A stretch of DNA of 34,158 nt, from the IMG/VR virus record IMGVR_UViG_2667527591_000023; one strand, given 5' to 3'. Position 1 is the first letter of the stretch, and each line of letters starts with the position of its first letter. The notes under the pieces are model-generated. The model worked only from the letters and a program-made list of their open reading frames with translations. It made no database searches and was not told the origin of the DNA. Origin of the DNA: a virus (Duplodnaviria > Heunggongvirae > Uroviricota > Caudoviricetes). Made by a program: the position numbers and the translations under genes. Positions 1,033 to 31,302 of the stretch are shown one piece after another.

Positions 1033-1220
1033 AAAAAATGCCCTCCAGTAGAGAGCATTTTTACTGTATGTATAACCAGTGTCAATGTATGAAATCCTAC
1101 GACCATACATCTCACTGAAGCCATAATGAAGTTGGCTATTCTTTTTGCTATGTGAGCATGTAACTTTTGCGGTTAACCTGCGGCTCATTTTTATTTTAGA
1201 CGCAGATATAAAAGCAAAAG

Positions 1221-8443: not shown

Positions 8444-9499
8444 TCAGTCGTTGCGCTTGTCTTCTGTCAGTCCCAGCGTGTACGGCTCAAAGCGGATCAC
8501 TTCTTCTCCAAGCCAGTCGTTAAGCTCCTGCAGTCGCTTCTGCAGCGGCATCAGCTCGTTGCGGACAAAGACGCGGCTGGCCTTTTCCACATCACCAAAG
8601 CCGCCGGTATTGTTGGGAATAATGCCCATCATCTGCGGCGGTACGCGGTGCGCTGCCATCATGTCATCGCGGCTCACGTTCTTGATGTTCAGAAACTCAT
8701 CCTTTGCCGCAACCTCCGATAACGGGATGATCTGGATGCCGTCCTTTTTACCGTTGGGTGAGTACATAAACAGGTTACGGAAGTTGCCCGGCCCTTTGGC
8801 GCTTTTCATTGCCTGGCGGATATTGTTCACGTCCTCCTGATTCTGTGCTGCGTCGGTCATGTACATGATGAAACCCGCATGGCTGCCGTTGATGTAATAC
8901 TTCCGGCGGAACAGCGTTGCGGACTCGTTGAGCAGGGTTGACGGGATGGCGGAGAGATAGCCGGGCAGCCCGTAAATCTCCTGGTTAATATCCGGCTCCA
9001 GCAGATGAAAGATGTTGCCCTGCGTAAATTCATAGGGCTGCGTGGTCAGGCCATACTGCACAAACCAGTAGGTGTCGAGGTCCACGCCACGGCGTGTGTA
9101 CTTCGCCAGTGCTGGCTCCAGTGAGAGAACGCCGCCGAGCCGGTTGGTGCGCTTTTCCAGATAGGCGTTACCGAACACCAGATAGTCCTGTACGAAACGG
9201 GCAAAAGCCTGCTGGCTGAGCAGGCGGTGCGGGATGTAGGTACTGCTGAGAATGTCACGCTTAACGGCAATCGGTGAGCTGTGATGCACGGCGGCGCGAT
9301 AGGTCCGCGCCAGTCCGTCAAAGCTCACCGGCGGCTCATACCAGCGGTCCATCTGCACGCATTCCACGTAGTCCAGCAATTCGCGTCGGTCTAACACCGG
9401 CACCGGGTCGCCAAAGCTAAACGCCTCTGCCGCAGCGCCGCCAGATTCTGCGTTGTGATCCACCGCTGCGCGGTTGTTCTTGTTTTTACGTTTGCTCAT
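8444..9499 (-). CDS. Q: Portal protein (P2 gpQ family), 351 aa
   Basis: Size and position next to terminase; GGAG RBS; start overlaps upstream stop (ATGA). Confidence 0.9.
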   Translation of the reverse strand: MSKRKNKNNRAAVDHNAESGGAAAEAFSFGDPVPVLDRRELLDYVECVQMDRWYEPPVSFDGLARTYRAAVHHSSPIAVKRDILSSTYIPHRLLSQQAFARFVQDYLVFGNAYLEKRTNRLGGVLSLEPALAKYTRRGVDLDTYWFVQYGLTTQPYEFTQGNIFHLLEPDINQEIYGLPGYLSAIPSTLLNESATLFRRKYYINGSHAGFIMYMTDAAQNQEDVNNIRQAMKSAKGPGNFRNLFMYSPNGKKDGIQIIPLSEVAAKDEFLNIKNVSRDDMMAAHRVPPQMMGIIPNNTGGFGDVEKASRVFVRNELMPLQKRLQELNDWLGEEVIRFEPYTLGLTEDKRND

Positions 9500-10221
9500 G
9501 CCGCCTGCTCCTTGTCAGCCTGGGGCCATTCGCACATAAACAGCATTTTCCAGTCCTCCGGTGATAATTCTTTTTTCATGTCATTCAGCCATTCATCATC
9601 AAAGAGCGCGGCTCCGGTTGCGAGCGTAGCCCCGGATGCTGCAGCGTCATCAGCGGTAAAGGTCATGCAGGTAGTGCTGTTGCGGGCGATCAGATTCTTG
9701 TATTCCTGCCATGCTTCCGGGCTGGGGCTTGGGGTGGTGTAGTAGGTAGCGTGATAGCGCGCGTGCATGGACAGGCTTTTGGCGAGCGCAATCATATTTT
9801 TGGGGGAGTCAGCCCAGGCATACTCTGACACGTAGACGTTTCCATGGAGCGCGGCGGCGAGACTTTCCGGCCCGATAAAATAAATGACCGCACCGTTTGG
9901 GAGTTCCAGATGCGCTTTACCTGATTTTATTTTCCCAAGATGCGTCCAGGCTGCTGCCTCACTTAAAAAAGCTGATATATAGGTTTTGACGGTCAGGGCT
10001 GATGCCGGGGTGCAGCCCAGAAAAATCTGGTTGCGTCCGGTGTGCAGTGCATCGTTCAGGGCTTCGTAGGCGAAAAAGAAATCCGCGCCAGCCTGACGCA
10101 TTTTTGTAAGCACGCGGTTTCTGCTGCGTGCGCCACTGTTCCATTCATGCTGGTAAGCAAAGAAAGGGCGATCTACAGGCAGGCTGGCGGTGGTCATGAG
10201 GTTAGTTGGGGTTGAGTGCAT
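9496..10221 (-). CDS. Terminase large-subunit ATPase-domain paralogue (241 aa) inserted between P and Q; lacks gpP N-terminal region and C-terminal nuclease domain
   Basis: Aligns to central gpP blocks: FAYQHEW/FNYQRHW, RQAGADFFFAYEALNDALHTGRNQIFL / RQIGATFYFAREALIDALLTGRNQIFL, LPNGAVIYFIG / LPNGATLYFLG, YYTTPS / YFSTPS, MLFMCEW / LLMCEF. GGAG RBS; start overlaps P stop (TGATG), stop overlaps Q start (ATGA). Confidence 0.85.
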   Translation of the reverse strand: MHSTPTNLMTTASLPVDRPFFAYQHEWNSGARSRNRVLTKMRQAGADFFFAYEALNDALHTGRNQIFLGCTPASALTVKTYISAFLSEAAAWTHLGKIKSGKAHLELPNGAVIYFIGPESLAAALHGNVYVSEYAWADSPKNMIALAKSLSMHARYHATYYTTPSPSPEAWQEYKNLIARNSTTCMTFTADDAAASGATLATGAALFDDEWLNDMKKELSPEDWKMLFMCEWPQADKEQAA

Positions 10222-11987
10222 CAGAAAATCTCCACAATGTTGCTGGTATTGGCGGCTTCGCCCTGCAGCGGTTCGTTAAACAGTGCGTGCATCGTTGCCC
10301 AGGCCAAATCTGCGTGGCTGGCTTCTTCGCTGCGGCTGGCTTCATAGGTAGGGCGGTTGCCGCTGGCTGTAGTGGCGCGACGGATAGCCATAAAGGATTG
10401 CGCAATGTCGGTGTGCCCGGCGTCAAACTCCAGACGGCGGTGGCTGATAATGTCGTATGCCTTGAGCACCAGTGCGTTTTTGACGTTGGGGTTGTAGACA
10501 AACTCCCGCACCGCAGGAAAGAACGCTTTCACGTTCTCGTAGACACCGTGACCAACGCCGGTCGAGTCGATGCCGATATATGTCACGTTGTACTGCTGCG
10601 TCAGTTTTTTAATGGCATCAGCCTGGGCGCGGAAGTCCATTCCGCGCCACTGGTGACGCTCAAGAATGCGGAACTTACCACCTGGCACGGCTGGCGGTGC
10701 CACCACCACGCATCCGGCGCTGTCGCCGTTCTGCGTACCTTTTGCCGGGTCATAACCGATCCACACTTCGCGCCAGCCAAACGGGCGCAGCGCCAGTGCA
10801 TGAAAGTCGGTCCAGACTTCCCAGCTGTCTACCATGCACGCCTGCAGCTCGCTGAGCGGGAATACGGACGCGAGATCGTCCACGAACTCACACATCAGCA
10901 GATTCTGGTATTCGTCCGGGCTGTACTCCATGCGCAACTGGTCAAGGTCGAACAGGTTACATCCGCCGCGCACCGCATCTTCCACAGTGACTATCTGGCG
11001 GTACTGCCCGTCTGCGCACAGCAGGCCGGGGGCCAGATTGCTGTGGGACAGGTCGATGTCCACCTTATCGGCTTTGTTGCGCCCTCGGTTGAACAGCGCA
11101 CCGGACCAGAACGGATAAGCACTGTGTGTCAGGCTGGATGGCGTGGAAAAATAGGTCTGTCGCCATTTTTTGTGAATAGCCATACCGGAAGCCACTTTGC
11201 GCAGCTCCTGGAATTTCGGTATCCAGAAATATTCATCCAGATACAGGTTGCCGTGGTAACTCTGGGCCGTGCGGGCATTGGTGCCGAGGAAGTAAAGCGT
11301 GGCCCCGTTAGGAAGCACCATCGGATCACCTTTCAGCTCCACCTCGACTTCATTGGCGAAATCGATGATGTACTGCTTAAAGACGTGAGCCTGTGCCTTA
11401 CTGGCAGAAAGGAAAATCTGGTTACGTCCGGTAAGCAGGGCGTCAATCAGGGCCTCACGGGCAAAATAGAAGGTCGCGCCGATCTGGCGTGACTTTAGCA
11501 GGTTGCGGATGCGGTTGGTTTTTCCGGCTTCCCACCAGTGGCGCTGGTAGTTAAACATGGAGGAATGGAAAATTTCTTCCAGCTTCTCAATTTGTTCATC
11601 GGTGAAAACATTCTTTTCCGGCTGACGGCGCGGGCCTTTGTTACGGTTGGCGACGTTAGGGTTTAAGTCGGCTTCGTTGCCGCCATTGTTAAACTTGCCG
11701 ATCCGCGCGTGGCGTTCCGACTGGCGCGCCAGCAGGTCAATTTCTTTGAAATCTTTCCCTTCTTTGTGCTCCTTCATAATGAGCTGGCAGTAGCGTGCGG
11801 CGGTGGTGAGCTGCATCTGATCCAGCGGCCCATAGTCACCCCACTTGTCGCGTTTTTTCCAGCTGTGAACGGTTGCAACTTTCTCGCCCAGCATTTCAGC
11901 AATGCGGGCTACGCGGTATCCCTGAAAGTACAGCAGCATGGCCTGCCGACGGGGATCGAGATCTGCGGGTGTCAGTGTGGTGTTCAT
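10221..11987 (-). CDS. P: Terminase large subunit, ATPase/nuclease (P2 gpP family), 588 aa
   Basis: Size and conserved terminase blocks; heads the leftward late operon. Confidence 0.92.
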   Translation of the reverse strand: MNTTLTPADLDPRRQAMLLYFQGYRVARIAEMLGEKVATVHSWKKRDKWGDYGPLDQMQLTTAARYCQLIMKEHKEGKDFKEIDLLARQSERHARIGKFNNGGNEADLNPNVANRNKGPRRQPEKNVFTDEQIEKLEEIFHSSMFNYQRHWWEAGKTNRIRNLLKSRQIGATFYFAREALIDALLTGRNQIFLSASKAQAHVFKQYIIDFANEVEVELKGDPMVLPNGATLYFLGTNARTAQSYHGNLYLDEYFWIPKFQELRKVASGMAIHKKWRQTYFSTPSSLTHSAYPFWSGALFNRGRNKADKVDIDLSHSNLAPGLLCADGQYRQIVTVEDAVRGGCNLFDLDQLRMEYSPDEYQNLLMCEFVDDLASVFPLSELQACMVDSWEVWTDFHALALRPFGWREVWIGYDPAKGTQNGDSAGCVVVAPPAVPGGKFRILERHQWRGMDFRAQADAIKKLTQQYNVTYIGIDSTGVGHGVYENVKAFFPAVREFVYNPNVKNALVLKAYDIISHRRLEFDAGHTDIAQSFMAIRRATTASGNRPTYEASRSEEASHADLAWATMHALFNEPLQGEAANTSNIVEIF

Positions 11988-17959: not shown

Positions 17960-18005
17960 AGTTGCAGCACTGCCGCCTTTCTTCCCCTGATGGCAACCTT
18001 TCCCT

Positions 18006-18584
18006 ATGAACGCACAATTAACCGAAATCATGCGCCTTATCACCAACCTGATCCGCACTGGTGTAGTCACCGAAGTGGACCGGGAGAATTGGCTTTGCCG
18101 GGTGAAAACGGGCGAGCTTGAAACCAACTGGATCAGCTGGCTGACGCTGCGTGCCGGGAATGCCCGCACATGGTGGCGACCATCGGAAGGTGAGCAGGTG
18201 GTGCTGCTGAGTCTGGGCGGCAATCTGGAAACCGCGTTTGCCCTGCCTGCGGTCTACTCAAACCAGTTTCCGCCACCTTCAGATTCTGAGGACGGCAACG
18301 TGGTTGAGTACCCGGACGGTGGCTGGTTTGAATACGAACCCGCCACCGGGCGCTGGTATGTCAGGGGCATCAAATCAATGGTCATTGAGGCCGCTGACAA
18401 CATCACCATGAAAACCAGTGAGTTTGTACTGGAGGCTGACCGCACGCGCATTAACAGCGAAGTGGTGATCAATGGTGGCGTTACCCAGGGCGGCGGAGCG
18501 ATGAGTTCTAACGGGATCGTGGTTGATGCGCATCAGCATACTGGCGTCCTGAAAGGCGGCGACACAACCGGAGGCCCGGTATGA
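18006..18584 (+). CDS. V: Baseplate spike/assembly protein (P2 gpV family)
   Basis: Position and size (192 aa); Gly-rich C-terminus. Confidence 0.88.
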   Translation: MNAQLTEIMRLITNLIRTGVVTEVDRENWLCRVKTGELETNWISWLTLRAGNARTWWRPSEGEQVVLLSLGGNLETAFALPAVYSNQFPPPSDSEDGNVVEYPDGGWFEYEPATGRWYVRGIKSMVIEAADNITMKTSEFVLEADRTRINSEVVINGGVTQGGGAMSSNGIVVDAHQHTGVLKGGDTTGGPV

Positions 18585-18940
18585 CGCTTTATAGCGGGAT
18601 GAACAATACCAGCGGTAAAGCCATTACTGATATTGACCATCTGCGCCAGTCGGTGCGGGACATTCTGCTGACGCCGCAGGGTAGCCGCATTGCTCGTCGG
18701 GAATATGGTTCCCTGCTGTCGGCACTGATAGATCAGCCACAAAATCCGGCGTTACGCCTGCAGGTTATGTCGGCTGTGTATGTGGCACTGAGTCGCTGGG
18801 AGCCACGGCTGACGCTGGATTCCATCACTATTAACAGCAATTTTGACGGTTCAATGGTGGTGGCGCTGAACGGGCGGCGTAATAACGGTGTGCCTGTTTC
18901 CCTTTCCGTATCAACAGGAGCAGAGAATGGCAGTGATTGA
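18581..18940 (+). CDS. W: Baseplate wedge protein (P2 gpW / gp25-like)
   Basis: Position and size; ATGA overlap with V. Confidence 0.88.
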   Translation: MTLYSGMNNTSGKAITDIDHLRQSVRDILLTPQGSRIARREYGSLLSALIDQPQNPALRLQVMSAVYVALSRWEPRLTLDSITINSNFDGSMVVALNGRRNNGVPVSLSVSTGAENGSD

Positions 18941-19835
18941 CCTTTCGCAGTTGCCTGCGCCGCAGATTGTGGATGTGCCGGACTTTGAGACGCTGCTTGC
19001 CGAACGCAAGGCAGAATTTGTGGCGCTTCATCCGAAAGATGAGCAGGAAGCAGTGATCCGCACGCTGGAACTGGAATCTGAACCCGTCACCAAATTGCTG
19101 CAGGAGAACGCTTACCGTGAGTTGCTTCTGCGCCAGCGCATTAACGAAGCCGCGCAGGCTGTGATGGTGGCTTACGCGATGGGCAGCGATCTTGACCAGC
19201 TCGCTGCCAACTACAACGTGAAACGCCTGACGGTGACGCCTGCTGATAATGACGCTGTGCCGCCCGTTGCAGCTGTGATGGAAAGCGATGAAGCGTTACG
19301 CCTGCGTGTGCCTGCAGCCTTTGAAGGGCTTTCAGTTGCGGGGCCAACTGCAGCTTATGAATTTCATGCCCGAAGCGCCGACGGTCGGGTGGCGGATGCC
19401 AGTGCAACCAGCCCGGCACCTGCAGAGGTGGTGCTGACTGTCCTTAGCCGCGAAGGCGATGGAACTGCAGAAAAAGACCTGCTGGACGTGGTGGAAAAAG
19501 CTCTGAACAGTGAGAACGTCCGCCCGGTGGCTGACCGTCTTACGGTTCGCAGCGCAGAAATCATCCCGTATCGCGTGGAAGCCACCATTTTTCTCTATCC
19601 GGGACCGGAAGCAGAGCCGGTAATGGCAGCGGCAAAAGCCAGCCTGCAGAAGTACATCGCCAGTCAGACACGTCTTGGTCGGGATATTCGCCGTAGCGCC
19701 ATCTTTGCCGCCCTGCATGTTGAGGGTGTGCAGCGTGTGGAGCTGGCTTCTCCTCTGGCGGATGTGGTCCTGAACAAAACACAGGCGGCATCATGTACGC
19801 AGTGGAGCGTAACCAACGGAGGAACGGATGAATAG
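18927..19835 (+). CDS. J: Baseplate assembly protein (P2 gpJ family); ATG 18927 with AGGAG RBS
   Basis: Position and size (302 aa). Confidence 0.88.
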   Translation: MAVIDLSQLPAPQIVDVPDFETLLAERKAEFVALHPKDEQEAVIRTLELESEPVTKLLQENAYRELLLRQRINEAAQAVMVAYAMGSDLDQLAANYNVKRLTVTPADNDAVPPVAAVMESDEALRLRVPAAFEGLSVAGPTAAYEFHARSADGRVADASATSPAPAEVVLTVLSREGDGTAEKDLLDVVEKALNSENVRPVADRLTVRSAEIIPYRVEATIFLYPGPEAEPVMAAAKASLQKYIASQTRLGRDIRRSAIFAALHVEGVQRVELASPLADVVLNKTQAASCTQWSVTNGGTDE

Positions 19836-20433
19836 TCTGCTGCCACCGGGTTCAACACTACTGGAGCGCCGACTGGCGCAAACCTGCAGCGGGATTTCTG
19901 ATCTGCAGGTGCCGCTGCGTGACTTGTGGAATCCGGCAACCTGTCCAGTCAGTTTCCTGCCTTATCTCGCCTGGGCGTTCTCTGTGGATCGCTGGGACGA
20001 GAGCTGGACAGAAAGCGTCAAGCGCCAGGTGGTGAAGGATGCTTTTTATATTCATCAGCATAAAGGGACCACCAGTGCCGTGCGGCGGGTGGTGGAGCCG
20101 TTCGGCTTTCTGATCCGCATTATTGAGTGGTGGCAGACCGGAGAGGCACCGGGCACGTTTCGTCTGGATATCGGTGTGCAGGACCAGGGCATCACTGAAG
20201 ATACCTATCTGGAACTTGAGCGACTGATAAGCGATGCCAAACCATGTAGCCGTCACATGATCGGCATGTCCATCAACCTGCAGACCAGCGGCCCGCATTG
20301 GGTGGGAGCCGCCAGCTATCTTGGCGAAGAAATCACGATCTATCCGTATATCAACGAAACAATTATTTCCGGCGGCACCGCGCATGAAGGCGGGGCGGTC
20401 CATGTTATTGACACAATGAGAGTGAATCCATGA
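19828..20433 (+). CDS. I: Baseplate/tail protein (P2 gpI family)
   Basis: Position and size; overlapping starts and stops. Confidence 0.88.
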   Translation: MNSLLPPGSTLLERRLAQTCSGISDLQVPLRDLWNPATCPVSFLPYLAWAFSVDRWDESWTESVKRQVVKDAFYIHQHKGTTSAVRRVVEPFGFLIRIIEWWQTGEAPGTFRLDIGVQDQGITEDTYLELERLISDAKPCSRHMIGMSINLQTSGPHWVGAASYLGEEITIYPYINETIISGGTAHEGGAVHVIDTMRVNP

Positions 20434-21851
20434 GCACAAAATTTTATACCCTGCTAACGGATATTGGCGCGGCGAAACTTGCCAGCGCCGCCGCGCTCGG
20501 TGTGCCTTTAAAAATTACCCATATGGCGGTCGGCGATGGTGGCGGAACATTGCCAACGCCGGACGCAAAGCAGACAGCATTAGTAAATGAGAAACGCCGG
20601 GCTGCGCTGAATATGCTCTATATCGACCCGCAGAACAGCAGCCAGATTATTGCTGAACAGGTGATCCCTGAAAACGAGGGCGGTTGGTGGATACGTGAAG
20701 TGGGCCTGTTTGATGAATCAGGGGCATTGATTGCCGTGGGAAACTGCCCGGAAAGCTATAAGCCGCAACTGGCTGAAGGTAGCGGGCGCACTCAGACCGT
20801 GCGCATGGTGCTGATTACCAGCAGCACGGACAATATCACCCTGAAAATCGACCCTGCTGTAGTGCTGTCAACCCGCAAGTATGTGGATGACAAGGCACTG
20901 GAGCTGAAGGTGTACGCGGATGATCAGATGGCAAAACATCTTGCCGCACCGGACCCGCATTCACAGTATGCACCCAAAGAAAGTCCGACGTTTACCGGGA
21001 CACCCAAAGCGCCAACGCCAGCAGCAGGGAATAACACCACGCAGATTGCGACCACCGCGTTTGTTCAGGCGGCTCTGACGGCTCTTATTAATGGTGCGCC
21101 AGCCACGCTGGACACGCTGAAAGAAATAGCCGCAGCCATTAACAATGATCCGAATTTCAGTACCACCATTAACAATGCGCTGGCACAAAAAGCGCCGCTG
21201 TCGAGTCCAGCACTCACCGGAACGCCAACAGCACCTACTGCGGCACAGTCGGTCAACAATACACAGATTGCCACTACAGCTTTTGTGAAATCAGCGATTG
21301 CAGCAATGGTGGGTTCTGCACCCGCGGCACTGGATACACTGAACGAACTGGCGGCGGCACTGGGGAATGATCCGAACTTTGCCACGACAATGCTTAATGC
21401 GCTGGCAGGTAAACAACCGCTGGACAATACGCTTACCAATTTGAGTGGAAAGGATGTAGCTGGTCTTCTCGCATACCTTGGTTTGGGAGAAGCAGCGAAA
21501 CGGGGGGTGGGAACAGGGGAAAATCAGATACCGGACATGGCTTCTTTTGCCAGTGGTGATGGATGGATGAAATTACCAAACGGTAAAATTCTGCAATATG
21601 GTCGAGGTGAGGCTATGCCGAAATTATCGACGCAAACAATGAGGATTACATTTCCTATCCCTTTCCCTAAAAAAGCGGACTGCGCCATGCTTACTCATTC
21701 TGGTGATGGAGGTGCGCCTTTAGGCGCTGGGCGAGGGTTCGTGATGACTGCAGAAGGCCCAACGTTAACCGGCTTTAATTCTGCTTACAGAACGTCATCA
21801 ACCAGCGACACGGTATCGATGAATTACAGTTGGTGGGCTGTTGGTGAGTAA
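20430..21851 (+). CDS. H: Tail fibre protein (P2 gpH family); C-terminal ~120 aa lie inside the invertible segment (current orientation)
   Basis: Conserved N-terminal tail-fibre domain, internal tandem repeats, recombination site inside the ORF. Confidence 0.9.
   Translation: MSTKFYTLLTDIGAAKLASAAALGVPLKITHMAVGDGGGTLPTPDAKQTALVNEKRRAALNMLYIDPQNSSQIIAEQVIPENEGGWWIREVGLFDESGALIAVGNCPESYKPQLAEGSGRTQTVRMVLITSSTDNITLKIDPAVVLSTRKYVDDKALELKVYADDQMAKHLAAPDPHSQYAPKESPTFTGTPKAPTPAAGNNTTQIATTAFVQAALTALINGAPATLDTLKEIAAAINNDPNFSTTINNALAQKAPLSSPALTGTPTAPTAAQSVNNTQIATTAFVKSAIAAMVGSAPAALDTLNELAAALGNDPNFATTMLNALAGKQPLDNTLTNLSGKDVAGLLAYLGLGEAAKRGVGTGENQIPDMASFASGDGWMKLPNGKILQYGRGEAMPKLSTQTMRITFPIPFPKKADCAMLTHSGDGGAPLGAGRGFVMTAEGPTLTGFNSAYRTSSTSDTVSMNYSWWAVGE
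20984..21422 (+). repeat. Tandem ~73-codon repeat (2 copies) within the tail-fibre gene
   Basis: Protein repeats ...NNTQIATTAFV...APA.LDTL.E.AAA..NDPNF.TT..NALA.K.PL twice in succession; DNA identity also visible. Confidence 0.8.
21465..21492. repeat. Left inversion crossover site (gix/hix-like, 13-2-13 imperfect palindrome) inside H
   Basis: CTTCTCGCATACC-TT-GGTTTGGGAGAAG; inner half-site is the inverted repeat of CTTCTCCCAAAC at 23365. Confidence 0.75.
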
Positions 21852-21871
21852 TTTTATTCAGGGTGATTTAT

Positions 21872-22315
21872 ATGAACGAATATGTTTATAGCGCAAGGCA
21901 TAATGCTTTTTTCCCTGTGGATATGATTGATAAATATAAATCAGAGGGATGGGATTTATCAGACGCTAAGGAAGTAAATCAAAATATTATCAGTGAGTTT
22001 ATGGATGAACCGCCACAAGGAAAAATCCGTATTGCCGGAGATGATGGGCTGCCTGCGTGGGCAGATATTCCTCCACCCACGCATGAAGAACTTATTGAAA
22101 TTACTGAATCAGAAAGACAGCTACTAATTCACCAGGCCAACGAATACATGAACAGTAAGCAATGGCCCGGTAAAGCCGCTATTGGTCGTCTGAAAGGCGA
22201 TGAGCTTGAACAGTATGGTTTGTGGCTTGATTATCTGGATGCTCTGGAAGTTTTAAACACCTCCAGCGCACCAGATATCGAGTGGCCTAACTCTCCGGAG
22301 GAACAGGCCAGATAA
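21872..22315 (+). CDS. G: Tail-fibre assembly chaperone (P2 gpG / Mu U family), cassette for the current orientation
   Basis: C-terminal motif SSAPDIEWPNSPE typical of Tfa proteins; follows H. Confidence 0.85.
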   Translation: MNEYVYSARHNAFFPVDMIDKYKSEGWDLSDAKEVNQNIISEFMDEPPQGKIRIAGDDGLPAWADIPPPTHEELIEITESERQLLIHQANEYMNSKQWPGKAAIGRLKGDELEQYGLWLDYLDALEVLNTSSAPDIEWPNSPEEQAR

Positions 22316-22886
22316 TAACAGGAGCCGTTGATATATCGACGGCTTGTAGTGCTTTGATGTAGCTCATCCAGGCGATCAGGCTAGCTTTATCTTCATCGCT
22401 GATAATGCCTAACTGTAGTTCTGTCTGCCAGAGACTGATCGTTGTCTGGGCCTCAAGCAGGAGCGCAGCTTTCTGTTGTTCCGCCGCTTCCACGTCCGCC
22501 GCGTTCTGCGCTTCCGTATCTGTCACCCACTCGCGACCGTTCCACGTATCGTAAGGCGTATCAGGTGCCAGCGTGGTGGTGCCTTCCGGGTATTCACCAG
22601 GCAAAGAAACGATCTCCGGCTCGCCTGTTTCAGTGCTGTACACCGTTTCACCACGGTGATCCGCGACGTATTCCCAGGCGGCAAAATCGGCTGTCCGGCA
22701 AATAGCAAAACCCTCTTTGCTCTCGCCGGGGGCGTCAATGCATGAGTTGGCTGGAATACCTACGCCCACGGCCAGATATTCAACAGATATAGAAAGGTAT
22801 TCTCGCGTCTCGTCATCATAGTTAAATACTGTAATATCGCCTGCCTCTGTGGCGATAAGTTCGTTGTTTAATTTTGCCTGTGCCAT
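22287..22886 (-). CDS. Alternative tail-fibre assembly chaperone (Tfa'), used after inversion
   Basis: C-terminal motif DISTAPVIIWPVPPES; convergent with and overlapping the plus-strand Tfa. Confidence 0.85.
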   Translation of the reverse strand: MAQAKLNNELIATEAGDITVFNYDDETREYLSISVEYLAVGVGIPANSCIDAPGESKEGFAICRTADFAAWEYVADHRGETVYSTETGEPEIVSLPGEYPEGTTTLAPDTPYDTWNGREWVTDTEAQNAADVEAAEQQKAALLLEAQTTISLWQTELQLGIISDEDKASLIAWMSYIKALQAVDISTAPVIIWPVPPES

Positions 22887-23419
22887 TATGCAGCCCTCAC
22901 AATGTAGTTAAATGCAACGTTTCGCGGCCTCGTTTCACTACCAAACATTTTTGAACCAAGTGTTGCCTTTGCGGTATATGTCTGCAATACCGTGCCAGTT
23001 GACGGGTTTGGGTTATATTCATTAGTTCCGTTCGGGTAATAAGCCATTGACGCATTGTTATCTATAAAAACAGCCGTCATTGGACCATCTCCGCCAGAAC
23101 TTGGTGAAGTTGGAATCCAGTGCCGGTGATCGAATGACATAGCACCCTGAGCAGAAAGCAAACCTCGCCCGCTATCAGCCCCGCGCCCGTCATCCCAGCC
23201 ACGAATAAATTCGCCTCTTAAATCAGGCAATCTGAGTGCAGGATAGGCCTGAGCCAATTTGGGGTACTGAGAAGCGGTAAACGCTGCTCCATTGCATTTT
23301 AGCCATCCAGTTGGTGGAGTTGCTGACGGCCACGGAACAGGCGCACCAACAGGTAATGCTGAACCTTCTCCCAAACTAACGTTTATGAAAATGCAGAGAT
23401 AACGGCTAACTGGCATCAT
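22886..23419 (-). CDS. Alternative tail-fibre C-terminal exon (H'), promoterless; fused to the H constant region only after inversion
   Basis: PWPS..PP.GWL.CNG..F....YP.L tail-fibre receptor-domain motif; right crossover site lies within its 5' end. Confidence 0.8.
   Translation of the reverse strand: MMPVSRYLCIFINVSLGEGSALPVGAPVPWPSATPPTGWLKCNGAAFTASQYPKLAQAYPALRLPDLRGEFIRGWDDGRGADSGRGLLSAQGAMSFDHRHWIPTSPSSGGDGPMTAVFIDNNASMAYYPNGTNEYNPNPSTGTVLQTYTAKATLGSKMFGSETRPRNVAFNYIVRAA
23365..23392. repeat. Right inversion crossover site (gix/hix-like)
   Basis: CTTCTCCCAAAC..., inverted relative to GGTTTGGGAGAAG at 21480..21492; just upstream of the invertase gene. Confidence 0.7.
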
Positions 23420-23446
23420 CTCCGGTTTTTATTCAGGGGGATGATC

Positions 23447-24013
23447 ATGCTTATTGGCTATGTACGCGTGTCAACAAATGACCAGAACACCGATTTGCAA
23501 CGCAATGCACTGAACTGTGCGGGATGTGAGCGGATTTTTGAGGATAAAATCAGTGGCACCAAGTCCGACAGACCGGGGCTGAAAAAGCTGCTCAGGACAC
23601 TATCGGCAGGAGACACGCTGGTTGTCTGGAAGCTGGACAGACTGGGGCGCAGTATGCGGCATCTTGTTACGCTGATAGAAGAGCTGCGCCAGCGTGGCGT
23701 GAATTTCCGAAGCCTGACTGACAGTATTGATACCAGCACCCCAATGGGCCGTTTCTTTTTTCATGTCATGGGTGCCCTGGCTGAAATGGAACGCGAACTG
23801 ATAGTTGAACGTACCAGGGCGGGGCTGGCTGCAGCTCGTGCTAAAGGCAGAGTAGGTGGACGCCGTCCTAAGTTGACCAGCGAACAGTGGGCACAGATTG
23901 GGCGTTTACTCGAGGCCGGAGAATCAAGACAGCGTATTGCACTGATTTTTGATGTAGGCGTTTCTACCATTTATCGAAAATTTCCGGCAAATAAGAACAA
24001 TAAATCTCCCTGA
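23447..24013 (+). CDS. Serine DNA invertase (Gin/Hin/Pin/Cin family), 188 aa
   Basis: N-terminal MLIGYVRVSTNDQ catalytic-serine motif, resolvase core, C-terminal HTH; alternative ATG at 23441. Confidence 0.93.
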   Translation: MLIGYVRVSTNDQNTDLQRNALNCAGCERIFEDKISGTKSDRPGLKKLLRTLSAGDTLVVWKLDRLGRSMRHLVTLIEELRQRGVNFRSLTDSIDTSTPMGRFFFHVMGALAEMERELIVERTRAGLAAARAKGRVGGRRPKLTSEQWAQIGRLLEAGESRQRIALIFDVGVSTIYRKFPANKNNKSP

Positions 24014-24061
24014 ATCAGCTTTATTTTGATTATCCCTGAAAGCAGACAAATACCGTCATTT

Positions 24062-24079
24062 TGTGTGAATAACGGTACA
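24062..24079 (+). promoter_or_regulatory. Ogr/Delta-type late promoter activator site TGT-N12-ACA (P_F)
   Basis: TGTgtgaataacggtACA about 85 bp upstream of FI. Confidence 0.6.
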
Positions 24080-24155
24080 ACTGCGCTTAGCTGTTTGTCA
24101 GGCACAATCACTTCAACATAGGGCGAAGCCTAATCCAATCAGGAGGTTCGCCACT

Positions 24156-25328
24156 ATGGCTCAGGATTACCACCACGGGGTGCGCGTTGTTGAAGTCAAC
24201 GAAGGCACCCGATCCATTACCACGGTGAGCACCGCCATCGTGGGTATGGTCTGCACGGGCGATGATGCCGATGCAAAAATGTTTCCTCTTAATAAACCCG
24301 TGCTGATCACTGATGTGCTGACTGCCAGCGGTAAAGCGGGTGAGTCAGGCACGCTGGCTCGTTCGCTGGATGCCATCGCTGACCAGGCAAAACCCGTGAC
24401 CGTTGTTGTGCGTGTGCCGCAGGGTGAAACGGAAGAAGAAACCACGACCAATATCATCGGAGCAGTGACCGCTGAAGGTAAAAAAACAGGCATGAAAGCC
24501 CTGTTATCTGCCCAGTCACAGCTCGGCGTTAAACCGCGCATTCTCGGCGTGCCAGGTCACGACACGAAGGCGGTAGCTACTGAGTTGCTGAGCGTGGCGC
24601 AAAGCCTGCGTGGATTTGCTTACCTGTCAGCGTATGGTTGCAAGACAGTGCAGGAAGCAATCACTTACCGTGAAAACTTCAGTCAGCGTGAAGGAATGCT
24701 GATCTGGCCCGACTTTACTGGCTGGGACACGGTGCTGAATGCCGAAGCAACGGCTTATGCCACCGCCCGTGCGCTTGGTCTGCGCGCCAAAATTGACGAG
24801 CAGACCGGATGGCACAAAAGCCTGTCCAACGTGGGCGTTAACGGTGTCACCGGAATTTCTGCTGATGTGTTCTGGGATCTGCAGGACCCGGCAACCGATG
24901 CGGGACTGCTGAACCAGAACGACGTCACCACCCTTATCCGCAAAGACGGTTTTCGCTTCTGGGGTTCCCGCTGCCTGAGTGATGACCCGCTCTTTGCCTT
25001 CGAAAACTACACCCGCACGGCGCAGGTGCTGACGGACACGATGGCAGAAGCGCACATGTGGGCGGTGGATAAACCGCTGAATCCGTCGCTGGCCCGCGAC
25101 ATTATCGAGGGTATCCGCGCCAAAATGCGCAGCCTGGTCAGTCAGGGCTATCTCATTGGTGGTGATTGCTGGCTGGATGAGTCGGTGAACGACAAAGACA
25201 CGCTGAAAGCCGGAAAACTCACCATCGACTACGACTACACGCCAGTGCCGCCACTTGAAAACCTGATGCTGCGTCAGCGCATCACCGATCAGTACCTGGT
25301 GAATTTCTCCAGCCAGGTCAGCGCGTAA
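24156..25328 (+). CDS. FI: Contractile tail sheath protein (P2 gpFI family)
   Basis: Position, size (390 aa), AGGAGG RBS. Confidence 0.92.
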
Positions 25329-25337
25329 GGGGACAAC

Positions 25338-25853
25338 ATGGCTTTACCACGCAAATTAAAACACCTGAACCTGTTTAATGACGGGAACAACTGGCAGGGG
25401 ATCGTTGAGTCGCTGACGCTGCCGAAATTTACCCGCAAATATGAGAAGTATCGCGGCGGCGGAATGCCGGGTGCAGTGGATGTGGATCTGGGGCTGGATG
25501 ACGGCGCACTGGATACGGAATTTTCCATTGGTGGTACTGAACTGCTGCTGTTTAAGCAGATGGGCAAAGCCACGGTAGATGGTATCCAGTTGCGCTTTAC
25601 CGGCTCTATCCAGCGTGACGATACCGGGGAAGTGCAGGCCGTGGAGCTTGTGGTGCGTGGACGTCACAAAGAAGTGGATTCCGGCGAGTGGAAGACGGGC
25701 GAAAGCAACACCACCAAAGTGACCAGTACCAACAGCTACGCGAAGCTGACTATAAATGGTGAGGTGCTCTATGAAGTGGACCTTATCAACATGGTGGAAA
25801 TTGTGGACGGTGTGGACCTGATGGAAGCGCACCGCAACGCCCTCGGCCTCTGA
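25338..25853 (+). CDS. FII: Tail tube protein (P2 gpFII family)
   Basis: Position and size (171 aa). Confidence 0.9.
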   Translation: MALPRKLKHLNLFNDGNNWQGIVESLTLPKFTRKYEKYRGGGMPGAVDVDLGLDDGALDTEFSIGGTELLLFKQMGKATVDGIQLRFTGSIQRDDTGEVQAVELVVRGRHKEVDSGEWKTGESNTTKVTSTNSYAKLTINGEVLYEVDLINMVEIVDGVDLMEAHRNALGL

Positions 25854-25907
25854 TGTATCTGAACGGCGCGGGATACCGCGCCAGAACCCAATTTACAGGA
25901 CAGCAAA

Positions 25908-26210
25908 ATGAGCGATAAGCAGACTGAAAAGACTATTCAACTGGATACCCCCATCAAGCGCGGTAAAACAGAAATCACCGAAATTGTGCTGCGTAAACCG
26001 CAGTCCGGTGCGCTGCGCGGTACACGCCTGCAGGCCATTATGGATATGGATGTGAACGCGATGATGACCGTGATCCCCCGCATCTCCAGTCCGGCACTGA
26101 CTGCACAGGAAATTGCAGAGATGGACCCGGCAGATCTCACTGCCATGTCGGTTGAGGTTGTCACTTTTTTGTTGAAGAAGTCGGTGCTTGCCGGTTTACC
26201 GACAGCCTGA
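25908..26210 (+). CDS. E: Tail assembly chaperone gpE (zero-frame product)
   Basis: Position before tape measure; contains the slippery site. Confidence 0.85.
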   Translation: MSDKQTEKTIQLDTPIKRGKTEITEIVLRKPQSGALRGTRLQAIMDMDVNAMMTVIPRISSPALTAQEIAEMDPADLTAMSVEVVTFLLKKSVLAGLPTA

Positions 26211-26344
26211 CGGTTGACGATCTGGTGGCTGATATCGCCACCATCTTTCACTGGCCGCCATCCGTTACTGACGTTATGCCGCTGACCGAAGTGCTGGAAT
26301 GGCGGTATAAAGTGATTCAGAGAAGCGGGGCCAACGATGAGTGA
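25908..26344 (+). CDS. gpE+E' tail assembly chaperone, programmed -1 frameshift product (~143 aa)
   Basis: Slippery heptamer TTTTTTG at 26165..26171; -1 frame stays open to TGA at 26342..26344, overlapping the T start. Confidence 0.75.
26165..26171 (+). promoter_or_regulatory. Programmed -1 ribosomal frameshift slippery site (T TTT TTG)
   Basis: Heptamer located near the end of the gene preceding the tape measure, the conserved chaperone arrangement. Confidence 0.7.
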
Positions 26345-29300
26345 TAATAACCTGCGCCTGCAGGTCATTCTTAATGCGGTTGACAAACTCACCCGCCCAT
26401 TCCGTGCTGCACAGGCCAGTTCGAAAGAGCTGGCTGGCGCAATTCAGAATACCCGAAACAGCCTCAAAGAACTAAATAAGCAGGCTGGCAGAATTGATGA
26501 ATTTCGCAAGACGCGCTCGCAACTAGCCATAACAGCCAACAACCTGAACGCAGCCCGCGAAGAGGCGGCAAAACTCGCCACACAATTTGCTGCCACTAAC
26601 AGGCCAACCGCCGCGCAGGCAAAGTTATTCAGTCAGGCCAAAACACGAGTACAGGAACTTCAGCAGACCTATAACGGCTTGTTGGGGGCGGTCCAGAGAC
26701 AACGTCAGGCACTTAAAGAATCAGGGATTGATACCAGACAACTCAGTAGTGCCCAGCGAGAACTTAAGAAAAATGCCGAAGAAACTCGTCAGGCACTGGA
26801 GGGCCAGCAAAAAGCACTTAAACGTCTGGGTGAACAACAGGCACGGATGAACGCTGCCAGAGAACAATACTCAAGACGGCTTGAAGTGCGCGATCGCATC
26901 GCAGGAGCCGGAGCCACCACCACGGCTGCAGGGCTGGCAATGGGCGCGCCAGTGATGGCGGCGGTAAAAAGCTATACCAGCATGGAAGATGCCATGAAAG
27001 GTGTGGCAAAGCAGGTCAATGGTCTGCGTGACGATAATGGCAACCGCACTGTGCGTTTTTACGAAATGCAGGATGCCATCAAAGCTGCCAGTGAACAGCT
27101 GCCAATGGAAAACGGTGCTGTGGACTTCGCCGCACTGGTTGAAGGTGGTGCGCGCATGAATGTGGCAAACCCTGACGACAGCTGGGAGGACCAGAAACGT
27201 GACCTGCTGGCCTTCGCCAGTACGGCAGCAAAGGCGGCAACAGCCTTTGAGCTGCCAGCGGATGAACTGTCAGAAAGTCTGGGGAAAATCGCCCAGCTCT
27301 ACAAAATACCAACCCGCAATATTGAACAGCTCGGTGATGCGCTGAACTATCTGGATGATAACGCTATGTCGAAAGGGGCAGACATCATTGATGTCATGCA
27401 ACGCCTGGGCGGTGTGGCTGATCGTCTGGATTATCGTAAAGCGGCGGCGCTGGGTTCCACCTTCCTGACACTGGGGGCTGCGCCGGAGGTCGCTGCCAGT
27501 GCTGCCAACGCGATGGTGCGTGAATTGTCCATTGCCACCATGCAAAGCAAGAGTTTCTTTGAAGGGATGAATCTGCTGAAACTCAATCCTGAAGTGATTG
27601 AAAAGCAGATGACGAAGGATGCGATGGGAACTATCCAGCGTGTGCTGGAGAAGGTGAACGCACTGCCGCAGGACAAGCGTCTGTCTGCCATGACCATGTT
27701 GTTTGGTAAAGAGTTTGGCGATGACGCGGCGAAACTGGCAAACAACCTGCCGGAACTACAGCGCCAGCTAAAACTGACAGCGGGCAATGATGCGCTCGGT
27801 TCCATGCAGAAAGAATCCGACATCAACAAGGACTCACTTTCTGCTCAGTGGTTGCTGGTTAAAACCGGAGCGCAGAATACCTTCAGCAGCCTGGGCGAAA
27901 CGCTGCGCCAGCCGCTGATAGATATTCTGTACACGGTGAAAAGCATCACGGGGGCGTTGCGTCGCTGGGTGGAAGCTAACCCTGAACTGACGGGTACACT
28001 GATGAAAGTAGCCGCGGTTGTGGCTGCGGTTACTGTCGGCCTCGGCACCTTAGCGGTGGCGCTGGCTGCAGTGCTGGGGCCGCTGGCAGTGATCCGTCTG
28101 GGATTCTCTGTGCTGGGTATCAAAACGTTACCTTCCGTTACGGCAGCAGTAACTCGAACCAGCAGCGCGTTGTCCTGGCTGGCTGGCGCACCACTGATAC
28201 TGCTGCGACGCGGGCTTGCTTCATCGGGCAACGCTGCGGGTTTACTTACTGCACCGTTGTCATCTTTGCGCCGCACGGCATCACTGACGGGAAATGTCTT
28301 GAAAACTGTAGCAGGTGCGCCAGTTGCACTTTTGCGGTCTGGATTATCCGGTTTACGTGCTGTTGCTGTGATGTTTATGAATCCTCTGGCGGTACTGCGC
28401 GGTGGACTGGCAGCCGCAGGCGCGGTGCTGCGAGTGCTTGCATCTGGTCCGCTGGCGATGCTGCGCGTTGCCCTGTATGCCATATCTGGTCTGTTAGGTG
28501 CTCTGCTTAGTCCGATAGGTCTTGTGGTTACTGCACTGGCGGGTGTGGCGCTGGTTGTCTGGAAATACTGGCAACCCATCACCGCATTTCTCGGTGGCGT
28601 GGTGGAAGGATTCAAAGCGGCGGCAGGTCCCATCAGTGCAGCGTTTGAACCACTTAAGCCCGTGTTCCAGTGGATTGGCGACAAAGTGCAGGCGCTGTGG
28701 GGCTGGTTTACTGATCTGCTGACGCCTGTTAAGTCGACCTCTGCCGAACTGCAGAGCGCAGCGGCAATGGGGCGACGATTCGGGGAGGCACTGGCGGAAG
28801 GGCTGAATATGGTCATGCATCCGCTGGACTCCCTGAAATCCGGCGTTTCCTGGTTGCTGGATAAACTCGGCATTGTCAGTAAAGAGGCTGCAAAGGCGAA
28901 ACTGCCGGAAAGTGTGACGCGTCAGCAACCTGCGACGGTGAATGCAGACGGTAAAGTGATGATGCCATCGGGTGGTTTTCCGTCATGGGGATATAGCTTT
29001 GCGGGGATGTATGACAGCGGCGGCTATATCCCGCGCGGGCAGTTTGGCATCGTCGGTGAAAACGGGCCGGAAATTGTCAACGGCCCGGCAAACGTGACCA
29101 GCCGGAGAAATACCGCTGCACTGGCTGCGGTTGTTGCCGGAATGATGGGCGTTGCTGCCGCGCCTACAGAGCTTCCACCGTTGCACCCTTTGGCACTTCC
29201 CGCGAAAGGCGGCGAAGCGATGGTGAGTCGTGCAGCCACTGTGCCGCCCATTCAACGGATTGAGGCACCGACGCAGATCATCATTCAGACGCAGCCAGGA

Positions 29301-31083: not shown

Positions 31084-31302
31084 ATGATGATTTGCCCACT
31101 GTGTGGAAGTGCCGCCCATACTCGCAGCAGTTTTCAGGTATCTTCATTGACCAAAGAGCGTTACAACCAGTGCCAGAACATTAACTGCAGCCATACTTTT
31201 GTTACCCATGAAACTTTTGTTCGTTCGATTGCAACGCCAAAAGAGTCAAATCCGGTTCAGCCGCATCCAATGAAATCAGAACAGGTGGCGCTCTCTCTTT
31301 GA
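31084..31302 (+). CDS. ogr: Late transcription activator, Ogr/Delta zinc-finger family (72 aa)
   Basis: CPLC ... C..C zinc-finger motif (MMICPLCGSAAH...CQNINCSHTF) resembling P2 Ogr. Confidence 0.9.
   Translation: MMICPLCGSAAHTRSSFQVSSLTKERYNQCQNINCSHTFVTHETFVRSIATPKESNPVQPHPMKSEQVALSL

Follow-up and report, generated by a model that had tools for sequence, protein, structure and literature searches.

Evidence for an active two-state tail-fibre inversion switch of the Din type in an Escherichia coli P2/186-like prophage

In the IMG/VR virus record IMGVR_UViG_2667527591_000023 (34,158 nucleotides, all of which was analysed and is called the window here) a 1.9-kb segment with a serine invertase gene beside it sits at the end of the tail-fibre genes, and the question is whether this segment still inverts and what its inversion does to the fibre. 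An earlier note on the same DNA had read the region as an invertible tail-fibre switch, and the anatomy, the recombination sites, the in-frame fusion and flipped contigs in public data all support that interpretation. The region appears to be an active two-state site-specific inversion switch of the Din type (the Gin/Cin/Pin/Hin group) in an E. coli P2/186-like prophage, a reading to which we give a probability of about 95%. Swapping of tail-fibre tips by an invertase is already known, being textbook knowledge for Mu, P1 and e14 and published for P2-like prophages, and the switch described here brings nothing new in kind to the biology.

By Pfam the gene order (gpA, Q, P, O, N, V-W-J-I-H, FI-FII-E-T-U-D and Ogr) is that of a P2/186-like prophage of the Peduoviridae, the family in which phage Cartapus is classified, and the first 25 kb of the window match Klebsiella P2-like phages with 95% identity over 81-83%. 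The prophage seems to be whole: it runs from integrase to ogr, its structural genes are intact and its late promoters are present; the TGT-N12-ACA dyad found before FI also occurs in the P/O divergent region (11976 and 12034) and upstream of V (17942), and a search of the window for tRNA genes gave none. As had been claimed, the switch fills the slot between the tail-fibre genes and FI, preceding the FI late promoter dyad at 24062. This location is the Z/fun hotspot of P2, where a DNA invertase and inversion of the neighbouring genes are frequent (bioRxiv 10.1101/2024.10.15.618418). The homology of roughly 95% that H has with P2-like phages of Klebsiella and E. coli ends at position 1062 of the H query, which is window position 21491 and the end of the left recombination site.

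Table 1. Features of the switch region and of the late-gene control of the prophage, in window coordinates.
Feature	Position	Strand	Description
Tail-fibre gene H (ORF)	20430-21851	+	473 aa, intact
Constant N-terminal part of H (Hc)	20430-21479	+	outside the invertible segment; Pfam Phage_tail_fib, residues 1-150
Left recombination site	21466-21491		TTCTCGCATACC-TT-GGTTTGGGAGAA; crossover core 21478-21479; inside H
Variable cassette 1, gp53-like C-terminal part of H	21480-21851	+	Pfam Gp53-like_C, residues 381-472
Tfa, tail-fibre assembly chaperone of cassette 1	21872-22315	+	147 aa; Pfam Caudo_TAP 1.2e-28; phrog_188 tail fiber assembly protein
Tfa', chaperone of cassette 2	22287-22886	-	199 aa, TfaE-like; Pfam Caudo_TAP 2.2e-34
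Variable cassette 2, Collar-type C-terminal part of H	22886-23377	-	Pfam Collar 8.1e-16; phrog_523 tail collar fiber protein
Right recombination site	23366-23391		TTCTCCCAAACT-AA-CGTTTATGAAAA; crossover core 23378-23379
Serine DNA invertase, Gin/Cin/Pin/Hin group	23447-24013	+	188 aa; just outside the segment
Recombinational (Fis-dependent) enhancer homologue	23465-23536	.	in the invertase 5' coding region
FI late-promoter dyad	24062-24079	+	TGT-N12-ACA; end of the switch slot
Ogr/Delta zinc-finger gene	31084-31302

Two cassettes converge between the sites, a gp53-like tip with Tfa on the plus strand and a Collar-type tip with Tfa' on the minus strand. The first is currently fused to Hc and is therefore expressed, and Tfa' is silent in the orientation of the window. 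The coordinates given earlier for the silent genes (H' 22886..23419, Tfa' 22287..22886) match ours, the end of the mechanical H' ORF beyond 23377 being outside the segment. With the left site within H, an inversion was expected to exchange the H C-terminus together with its chaperone, and the predicted flip does so in frame, taking H from 473 aa (Gp53-like_C) to 513 aa (Collar), each form followed by its own Caudo_TAP chaperone; in the flipped form Tfa' comes directly after the 513-aa H with an overlapping TAATG stop/start. All ORFs are intact in either orientation, and the same 147-aa Tfa gene is called in public contigs. The two variable C-termini are without detectable similarity (BLASTP E = 0.66) and belong to different Pfam families, as their description as unrelated had it, and to judge from sequence this is consistent with different receptors for the two tips. 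Likeness between Tfa and Tfa' is confined to the C-terminal 69 residues, at 26% identity. Across 21300-24300 a scan for sigma-70 promoters and intrinsic terminators returned 4 and 3 matches against 3.6 and 3.4 in shuffles, and therefore no promoter can be claimed for the invertase or for the silent cassette; upstream of the invertase start codon, back to the right site, none was found. The minus-strand cassette, earlier called promoterless, may be so.

Recombination-site similarity is recognisable on formal alignment with gix and cix, for which the Mu gix and P1 cix half-sites, taken from the annotated Mu and P1 records, were the exclusive source of a position weight matrix used to scan the whole 34-kb window; in the literature collection searched, no paper aligning gix, cix, pix and hix was found. 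The matrix picks out exactly two gix/cix/pix-like sites of the Din family, in inverted orientation, the left ranking first with 25.7 bits and the right second with 18.1 bits, and the third-ranked position reaches 13.5 bits. Maxima from 100 simulated sequences averaged 11.2 +/- 2.7 bits, and the highest of them, 20.6, reached once in the 100 simulations, exceeds the score of the right site. No third, cryptic site of the kind that would make a shufflon-like multi-state system was found, the rest of the window scoring at most 13.5 bits. Each site is of 26 bp (12 + 2 + 12) and not of 28 bp as first proposed, and the positions of the motifs GGTTTGGGAGAAG (21480-21492) and CTTCTCCCAAAC (23365-23376) were borne out. 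The TT and AA cores are identical in the inverted register, and exchange at the core is in frame. Beside the core of the right site there is a C-to-T change, AAACT against AAACC in e14 and GPEC. An inverted-repeat search pairs 21466-21492 with 23365-23391 (27-nt arms, 78% complementary), with exact complementarity over 12 nt only and, by our estimate, about 0.75 such pairs expected per 5 kb; the same search returned eleven further pairs of 12-22 nt. As stand-alone evidence the inverted repeat was rejected, 12 exact nucleotides being close to chance level in 5 kb. The sites are significant because of their rank under the gix/cix matrix, their matching cores with in-frame exchange, and the flipped public contigs.

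The adjacent gene is indeed a Gin/Pin/Cin-type invertase, having Pfam Resolvase (2.3e-53) and HTH_7 (5.7e-16) domains, with its residues 1-183 in gapless alignment with Gin (PDB 3uj3; E = 1e-92). In that alignment Ser9 is present and YVRVS(9)TNDQ conserved, so that the protein has the features by which the Din family is recognised: some 190 aa, an N-terminal resolvase catalytic domain, the Ser9/10 nucleophile and a C-terminal HTH. Its identity is 86.7% to PinE, 79% to Cin and 76% to Gin; NCBIfam gave no specific family for it, every match being far below cut-off. The 5' region of the gene, where the earlier note suggested that a Fis-dependent enhancer be sought, contains a homologue of the P1 Cin enhancer at 23465-23536, which aligns gaplessly with cin nt 19-90, the stretch that the P1 record annotates as enhancer, with 55 of 72 positions identical. 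Two putative Fis-like 15-mers (23469-23483 and 23517-23531) lie 48 bp apart, and matches to the Fis pattern fall at gene nt 23-37 and 71-85 in the window invertase, cin, gin and pinE alike; the pattern applied is a degenerate one from the literature. From enhancer to right site is about 97 bp, against about 96 bp in Mu.

Whether the segment inverts was followed in public contigs, in which copies of the prophage were located by exact-protein look-up; the E. coli complete-genome collection held no exact copy, the best covering 79-82% at 88-92% identity. The inverted orientation is present in public data for this same prophage. Once 21475-23379 of the window is inverted, three contigs (L012-L014) match it at 99.9-100% identity, and two of them (L013 and L014) show not one mismatch in 8,600 bp against the flipped sequence predicted by exchange of the central dinucleotide, with H called as one gene for the predicted 513-aa protein. 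The junctions in the flipped contigs read ACC TT AGT (the left one, in all three) and ACC AA CGT, so that the exchange can be placed at the 2-bp core. Both types of junction also turn up within single isolates, three in number, on the chimeric contigs L015, L016 and L017. Sister elements of E. coli strains that are nearly identical behave similarly: the P2-like prophages of GPEC1366 and GPEC1040 differ by inversion of a 1,914-bp segment, their flanks by one 1-nt indel, and in the 8.5-kb stretch compared around a homologous pinE element the chromosomes of MEI1-1023 and MEI2B-1023, equal in length, have an exact 1,848-bp inversion as their sole difference. Since both states and the in-frame fusion occur in near-identical prophages, the window is to be seen as one state of an active two-state switch, and flipping in its own strain is probable given how closely those prophages elsewhere match it (99.9-100%). 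The public contigs are biased towards the Collar-ON state, which some 20 of the 24 read contigs with exact Tfa' show, the exact 473-aa H being present in 5 contigs. A single long contig, that of GCA_000944435.1, was found to have the orientation of the window.

A mechanism on the pattern of Gin, Hin and Cin would have the 188-aa invertase bind both 26-bp sites and, with Fis on the enhancer inside the invertase's own gene, assemble an invertasome. Staggered cuts of 2 bp at the central TT/AA and a strand rotation of 180 degrees would then invert the 1.9-kb segment. Both this strand-exchange chemistry and a dependence on Fis and DNA supercoiling are taken over from those relatives, as is the likely assignment of the flipping to the adjacent invertase and not to another cellular Pin. 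Because Hc stays outside, it is joined in frame in either orientation to a receptor-binding C-terminus, the two being unrelated and each followed by its own chaperone: gp53-like with Tfa as in the window (473 aa) or Collar-type with Tfa' when flipped (513 aa). A lysogenic population may thus release phage with two different tail-fibre tips, and by analogy with the same systems the tips probably differ in host range.

Among known systems the closest in sequence is the P segment of e14 with its invertase Pin in E. coli K-12 (pinE, stfE/tfaE, stfP/tfaP), whose inversion has been shown experimentally (PMC4272514, PMC12529663). There too two convergent cassettes of fibre tip and chaperone have the invertase directly outside; the site beside pinE is identical to the right site of the window at 25 of 26 positions, the left site shares CTTGGTTTGGGAGAAG, TfaE is 60% identical to Tfa' and StfE 59% to the Collar cassette. 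In contrast StfP is only 33% identical to the gp53-like cassette, over 108 residues, and the fibre gene of e14, a defective lambdoid remnant, is short, whereas the window holds an apparently complete P2/186-like myovirus prophage with a full-length P2 H-type fibre. P2-like prophages and phages (Fels-2 with fin, the prophages of EPEC E2348/69, and phages Cartapus, pro483 and 500465-1) share the family, the invertase and the position, after H and its chaperone and before FI. Their cassette content varies, and homology to Cartapus and Klebsiella phages ends at the left site to restart at the invertase (48-54% coverage). Experiments have verified inversion in EPEC P2-like prophages, one of which, with three sites, takes four states (PMC4272514), against two sites only in the window; tail-fibre inversion beside fin is described for Fels-2 (PMC7953296). 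The Mu G and P1 C segments, with which the earlier note had equated the architecture, have the same logic and are not the nearest relatives. In these systems, whose invertases are Gin and Cin, a constant Sc likewise lies outside and the Sv/U and Sv'/U' cassettes alternate inside, the gix/cix sites are of 26 bp and the invertase 5' coding region holds an enhancer, but the segment is longer (Mu about 3 kb, P1 4.2 kb, here 1.9 kb), the fibre cassettes are unrelated in sequence to those of the window, the chaperone genes are separated instead of overlapping by 29 bp, and in P1 the invertase is on the other side, beside the site of the silent cassette. The H segment of Salmonella with Hin has a recombinase of the same group and likewise depends on Fis and an enhancer in its mechanism (PMC3798978), although Hin flips a promoter for an on/off choice of flagellin and swaps no coding cassettes.

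How far could the second orientation come from something other than this switch? That it is an assembly artefact, or a product of RecA-dependent recombination between the inverted repeats, is extremely improbable: the chimeric contigs L015-L017 are plainly assembler products, but both states are also found in complete circular chromosomes, the point of exchange is the 2-bp core within a gix/cix-like site, and the shared repeat of 15-18 bp is far below what efficient RecA recombination needs. That repeat is shorter than usual assembler k-mers, and therefore each junction needed reads of its own. A fossil switch, in which the architecture is inherited and this copy is locked, would fit the one orientation of the single assembled window, the C-to-T change in its right site and a frameshifted invertase in a relative on plasmid p13P477T-2. 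Contigs with the same sites, the AAACT variant included, nevertheless occur in both orientations, both junctions are seen in chimeric contigs of single isolates and the ORFs stay intact either way, so we hold a locked copy to be very improbable.

Of a different sort are doubts over which enzyme acts and to what end. Din invertases are generally known to stand in for each other, and flipping might come mainly in trans from a Pin-type invertase elsewhere in the host (on e14, Qin, Rac or another P2- or Mu-like prophage), with the adjacent gene dispensable or inactive. PinQ of Qin does invert the e14 P segment (PMC12529663), the near-identical right site would suit such an enzyme, and 2,191 of 5,426 E. 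coli genomes have at least one homologous place, with up to 8 in each. The adjacent invertase is however an intact 188-aa ORF with Ser9, a gapless match to Gin and a conserved enhancer region, and it is kept beside the segment in all related P2-like loci examined, which makes a main role in trans unlikely; the two routes are in any case compatible. Improbable as well is that the main selected role in the lysogen is an effect on the host, such as a tail-fibre fragment that blocks adsorption of other phages. Such a case is reported from e14, where StfE2 arises when the homologous P segment inverts and keeps T2 from adsorbing (PMC12529663), and identity to StfE and TfaE is about 60% for the Collar cassette and Tfa'; yet this prophage looks complete, and H belongs to a late operon whose expression is not expected in a repressed lysogen. 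Quite speculative is a wider proposal, that the segment could be a node in a network of cross-reacting Pin invertases and invertible fibres within one E. coli genome, with a lysogen role like the StfE2 block and with the Collar-ON bias due to host selection and not chance.

For the preferred reading of an active tail-fibre switch the value of the locus lies in annotation that is exact to the nucleotide, with a crossover placed to within 2 bp and a record of either state from one and the same prophage. The orientation met in any single assembly is arbitrary, and short-read assemblies break or become chimeric at invertible segments. As to gene calling at this locus, PGAP mis-annotates H in the gp53-like-ON state as truncated.

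Direct evidence that the very prophage of the window flips comes from public assemblies, among which an exact-sequence look-up places the 199-aa chaperone Tfa' in 46 blocks. Three contigs of the same prophage, L012, L013 and L014 (an ENA metagenome scaffold, GCA_010686485.1 and GCA_000936775.1), are collinear with window positions 17971-21492 and 23365-26570 (99.94-99.97%) and carry the stretch 21475-23379 inverted at 99.9% identity, which is the orientation that the earlier note's claim of a switch called for. Over 8,600 bp L013 and L014 agree at every position (0 mismatches) with the flipped form predicted beforehand, and their H tail-fibre protein is the predicted one of 513 aa. The flipped junctions read ACC-TT-AGT and ACC-AA-CGT, and since the core-adjacent positions differ between the two sites these junctions place the exchange at the 2-bp core. 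Further contigs are chimeric, with the constant part of H flanking the segment on both sides in L016 (GCA_000936715.1) and the invertase side doing so in L015 (GCA_000936345.1) and L017 (GCA_000941435.1). With a shared repeat of no more than 15-18 bp, contigs of this kind need reads over both junction types, and so both orientations within one sequenced culture; a segment bordered by one and the same flank at either end is then a usable sign of mixed orientation. Only the flipped state is common among the contigs read with Tfa' (some 20 of 24), while the exact 473-aa H that goes with the window's orientation was located in 5 contigs. Short-read assemblies from the three accessions of the chimeric contigs (L015 to L018) break off or turn chimeric at the segment.

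Features of the switch and of the prophage around it
Feature	Coordinates	Strand	Product, domains or place
Integrase	1-1188	-	first gene in order
Portal gene Q	8444-9499
ORF between Q and P	9496-10221	-	241 aa
Terminase gene P	10221-11987
H	20430-21851		intact ORF, 473 aa; Phage_tail_fib N-terminal, Gp53-like_C C-terminal
Left site	21466-21491		inside H
Tfa (chaperone)	21872-22315		147 aa; Caudo_TAP; after H
Tfa' (chaperone)	22287-22886	opposite to H	199 aa; Caudo_TAP
Collar-domain ORF	22886-23419	opposite to H	177 aa
Right site	23366-23391
Invertase	23447-24013		188 aa; Resolvase + HTH_7
Ogr	31084-31302		last in listed order

The coordinates given in the earlier note hold, and its repeats lie at 21480-21492 and 23365-23376. 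Taken alone this inverted repeat is not beyond chance, only 12 nt being exactly complementary, and eleven other inverted pairs of 12-22 nt lie within the same 5 kb. A half-site weight matrix was built from gixL/R and cixL/R only, taken from the annotated Mu and P1 records, and all 34 kb were scanned. The claimed sites rank first and second, bearing out their supposed likeness to gix and cix: the best 26-mer is the left site (TTCTCGCATACC TT GGTTTGGGAGAA, 25.7 bits) and the next the right site (TTCTCCCAAACT AA CGTTTATGAAAA, 18.1 bits), with the third at 13.5 bits, while in 100 first-order Markov simulations the maximum score averages 11.2 +/- 2.7 and reaches 20.6 at the highest. Despite the chance-level repeat the sites are, on sequence grounds, specific. 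Din-type recombination needs identical central dinucleotides in the two sites, and TT and AA are identical in the inverted-repeat reading. The 34-kb matrix scan found no third recombination site, and so the switch is two-state.

Both central dinucleotides (21478-79 and 23378-79) fall at codon position 2, so that an exchange there leaves H in frame. H at present ends ...AGLLAYL-GLGEAAKRG... with the gp53-like tip, and when flipped is predicted to end ...AGLLAYL-SLGEGSALPVG... with the Collar tip and with Tfa' directly after it, stop and start overlapping as TAATG. The computed in-frame fusion, from 473 to 513 aa, agrees with the proposal that inversion swaps both the H C-terminus and its chaperone. 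The two tips are unrelated, as had been claimed (no similarity; BLASTP E = 0.66), and between Tfa and Tfa' similarity is confined to the 69 residues at the C-terminus (26% identity).

The convergent chaperone genes overlap by 29 bp (22287-22315) in an imperfect palindrome, TGGCCTAACTCTCCGGAGGAACAGGCCA, either strand of which codes for the C-terminally conserved W-P-x-x-P-E. Related P2-like and e14-type loci have the same overlap annotated, and a hairpin of -13.2 kcal/mol is predicted over a 66-nt stretch. The starts of tfa and of the invertase gene are each closely preceded by a copy of a 16-nt direct repeat, TTTTATTCAGGG(T/G)GAT (21852-21867 and 23427-23442); some 0.14 such pairs are estimated to arise by chance in 5 kb, so the repeat may be fortuitous. 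P2-like loci with other cassettes retain the copy before the invertase, and the other travels with the gp53-like cassette, being present also in an e14-like element (L005).

The invertase immediately outside the segment is of the Gin/Hin family, as the earlier note held: it matches the Gin crystal-structure sequence without gaps over residues 1-183 (E = 1e-92), has Ser9, and is identical to PinE at 86.7%, Cin at 79% and Gin at 76%. The enhancer sought in its 5' region has a homologue at 23465-23536, which aligns gapless with the Cin enhancer annotated in the P1 record at cin nt 19-90 (identical at 55/72 positions to cin and 53/72 to gin). The degenerate Fis pattern (G/T)NNYRNN(A/T)NNYRNN(C/A) has two matches there, at nt 23-37 and 71-85 of the gene, 48 bp apart and placed just as they are in cin, gin, pinE and two further invertase genes of P2-like type. 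The proximal match is ~97 bp from the right-site core, the equivalent Mu distance being ~96 bp. We infer that the switch would be Fis dependent.

Explanations by a locked fossil, an assembly artefact or a RecA-mediated inversion are each contradicted by flipped L013 and L014, by the chimeric contigs and by two pairs of sister elements. One P2-like prophage, shared by GPEC1366 and GPEC1040, has a 1,914-bp segment inverted between the two, the right flanks being 100% identical (2,236 bp) and the left (2,093 bp) differing in one 1-nt indel. The MEI1-1023 and MEI2B-1023 chromosomes, both 4,839,683 bp, differ over an 8.5-kb stretch around a pinE element, with homologous cassettes and the same inner half-site, solely by an exact 1,848-bp inversion. 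Flipping might also be driven in trans by another Pin-type invertase, as PinQ acts on e14 (PMC12529663), which would not conflict with the main explanation. The switch could conceivably have a role at host level, such as an adsorption block like that of e14 StfE2, though this is unsupported here.

The feature is an active member of a well-known kind; the first observation is confirmed and its interpretation supported. All the Din-family defining features testable by sequence are present, and catalysis by the invertase and a host-range change on flipping would be the Din-type and Mu G-type expectation. The layout matches Mu G with Gin and P1 C with Cin, as proposed, and among characterised systems the e14 P segment with Pin comes closest (right site 25/26 identical, invertase 87%, Tfa' ~60% identical to TfaE, Collar cassette ~60% to StfE). 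Inversion in P2-like prophages has been shown experimentally in EPEC (PMC4272514), and inversion beside fin is reported for Fels-2 (PMC7953296).

Searched against complete E. coli genomes, the as-is and in-silico flipped queries give equally good hits (for example EC931, 79% coverage and 92.0% identity; PCP06171, 79% and 91.8%). E. coli ERP001 (L019, NZ_CP063214.1 17900-26600) carries a sister prophage, also P2-like and inserted at the same site of the chromosome beside ybjL, with the H constant part, sites and invertase as in the window and, in the same frame, different cassettes (a 504-aa Collar-type H, 197-aa and 146-aa chaperones), so cassettes are replaced inside a fixed invertible frame. 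Homology of the window to Klebsiella phages and Cartapus ends exactly at the left site and restarts at the invertase, and together with ERP001 this makes the sites also mosaic boundaries for cassette replacement. In RefSeq genomes with the gp53-like state on, PGAP gives H as 'incomplete, missing C-terminus' plus a separate 'gp53-like domain-containing protein' (1031-2452 in both L006 and L008, from E. coli EC931 and GPEC1366); the real 473-aa ORF is uninterrupted and the split is an annotation artefact of the rarer orientation. The same switch, with a frameshifted invertase gene (L001 4461-5019), occurs in a related P2-like element of E. coli 13P477T that is on record as a circular 'plasmid' of 37 kb (p13P477T-2, CP019275.1); this may be a naturally locked copy.

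The window apparently holds a complete P2/186-like prophage, with ybjL, ybjM and grxA (99.9% identity to E. coli) as right flank. After the integrase come CI and CII, both 186-type, a D12 (Dam-class) methyltransferase, gpA and a DinI-like gene; then portal Q, terminase P, scaffold O, capsid N and lysozyme; then V, W, J, I and H, sheath FI, tube and tape-measure proteins, and D. TGT-N12-ACA, a dyad whose pattern is typical of Ogr-activated late promoters, has nine matches across the window, four of them at expected P2 late-promoter places (P, O, V, F), namely two in the divergent P/O region (11976, 12034) and one each upstream of V (17942) and FI (24062). Given this last dyad, the switch and invertase fill the end of the V-W-J-I-H operon directly before the FI promoter, in keeping with the slot between tail-fibre genes and FI first proposed. 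This is the P2 Z/fun hotspot, where a DNA invertase and inverted neighbouring genes are often seen according to a recent survey (bioRxiv 10.1101/2024.10.15.618418).

Elsewhere, the start of the 241-aa ORF overlaps the P stop codon; P2 is not known to have a gene at this place. NCBIfam gave no match; the ORF hits phrog_3746, 'terminase large subunit', over positions 123-371 of 374 (E = 3e-93), as well as Pfam Terminase_6N (1.2e-14), and seems to be an additional terminase-ATPase-like gene of the P-Q operon, short at its N-terminus.
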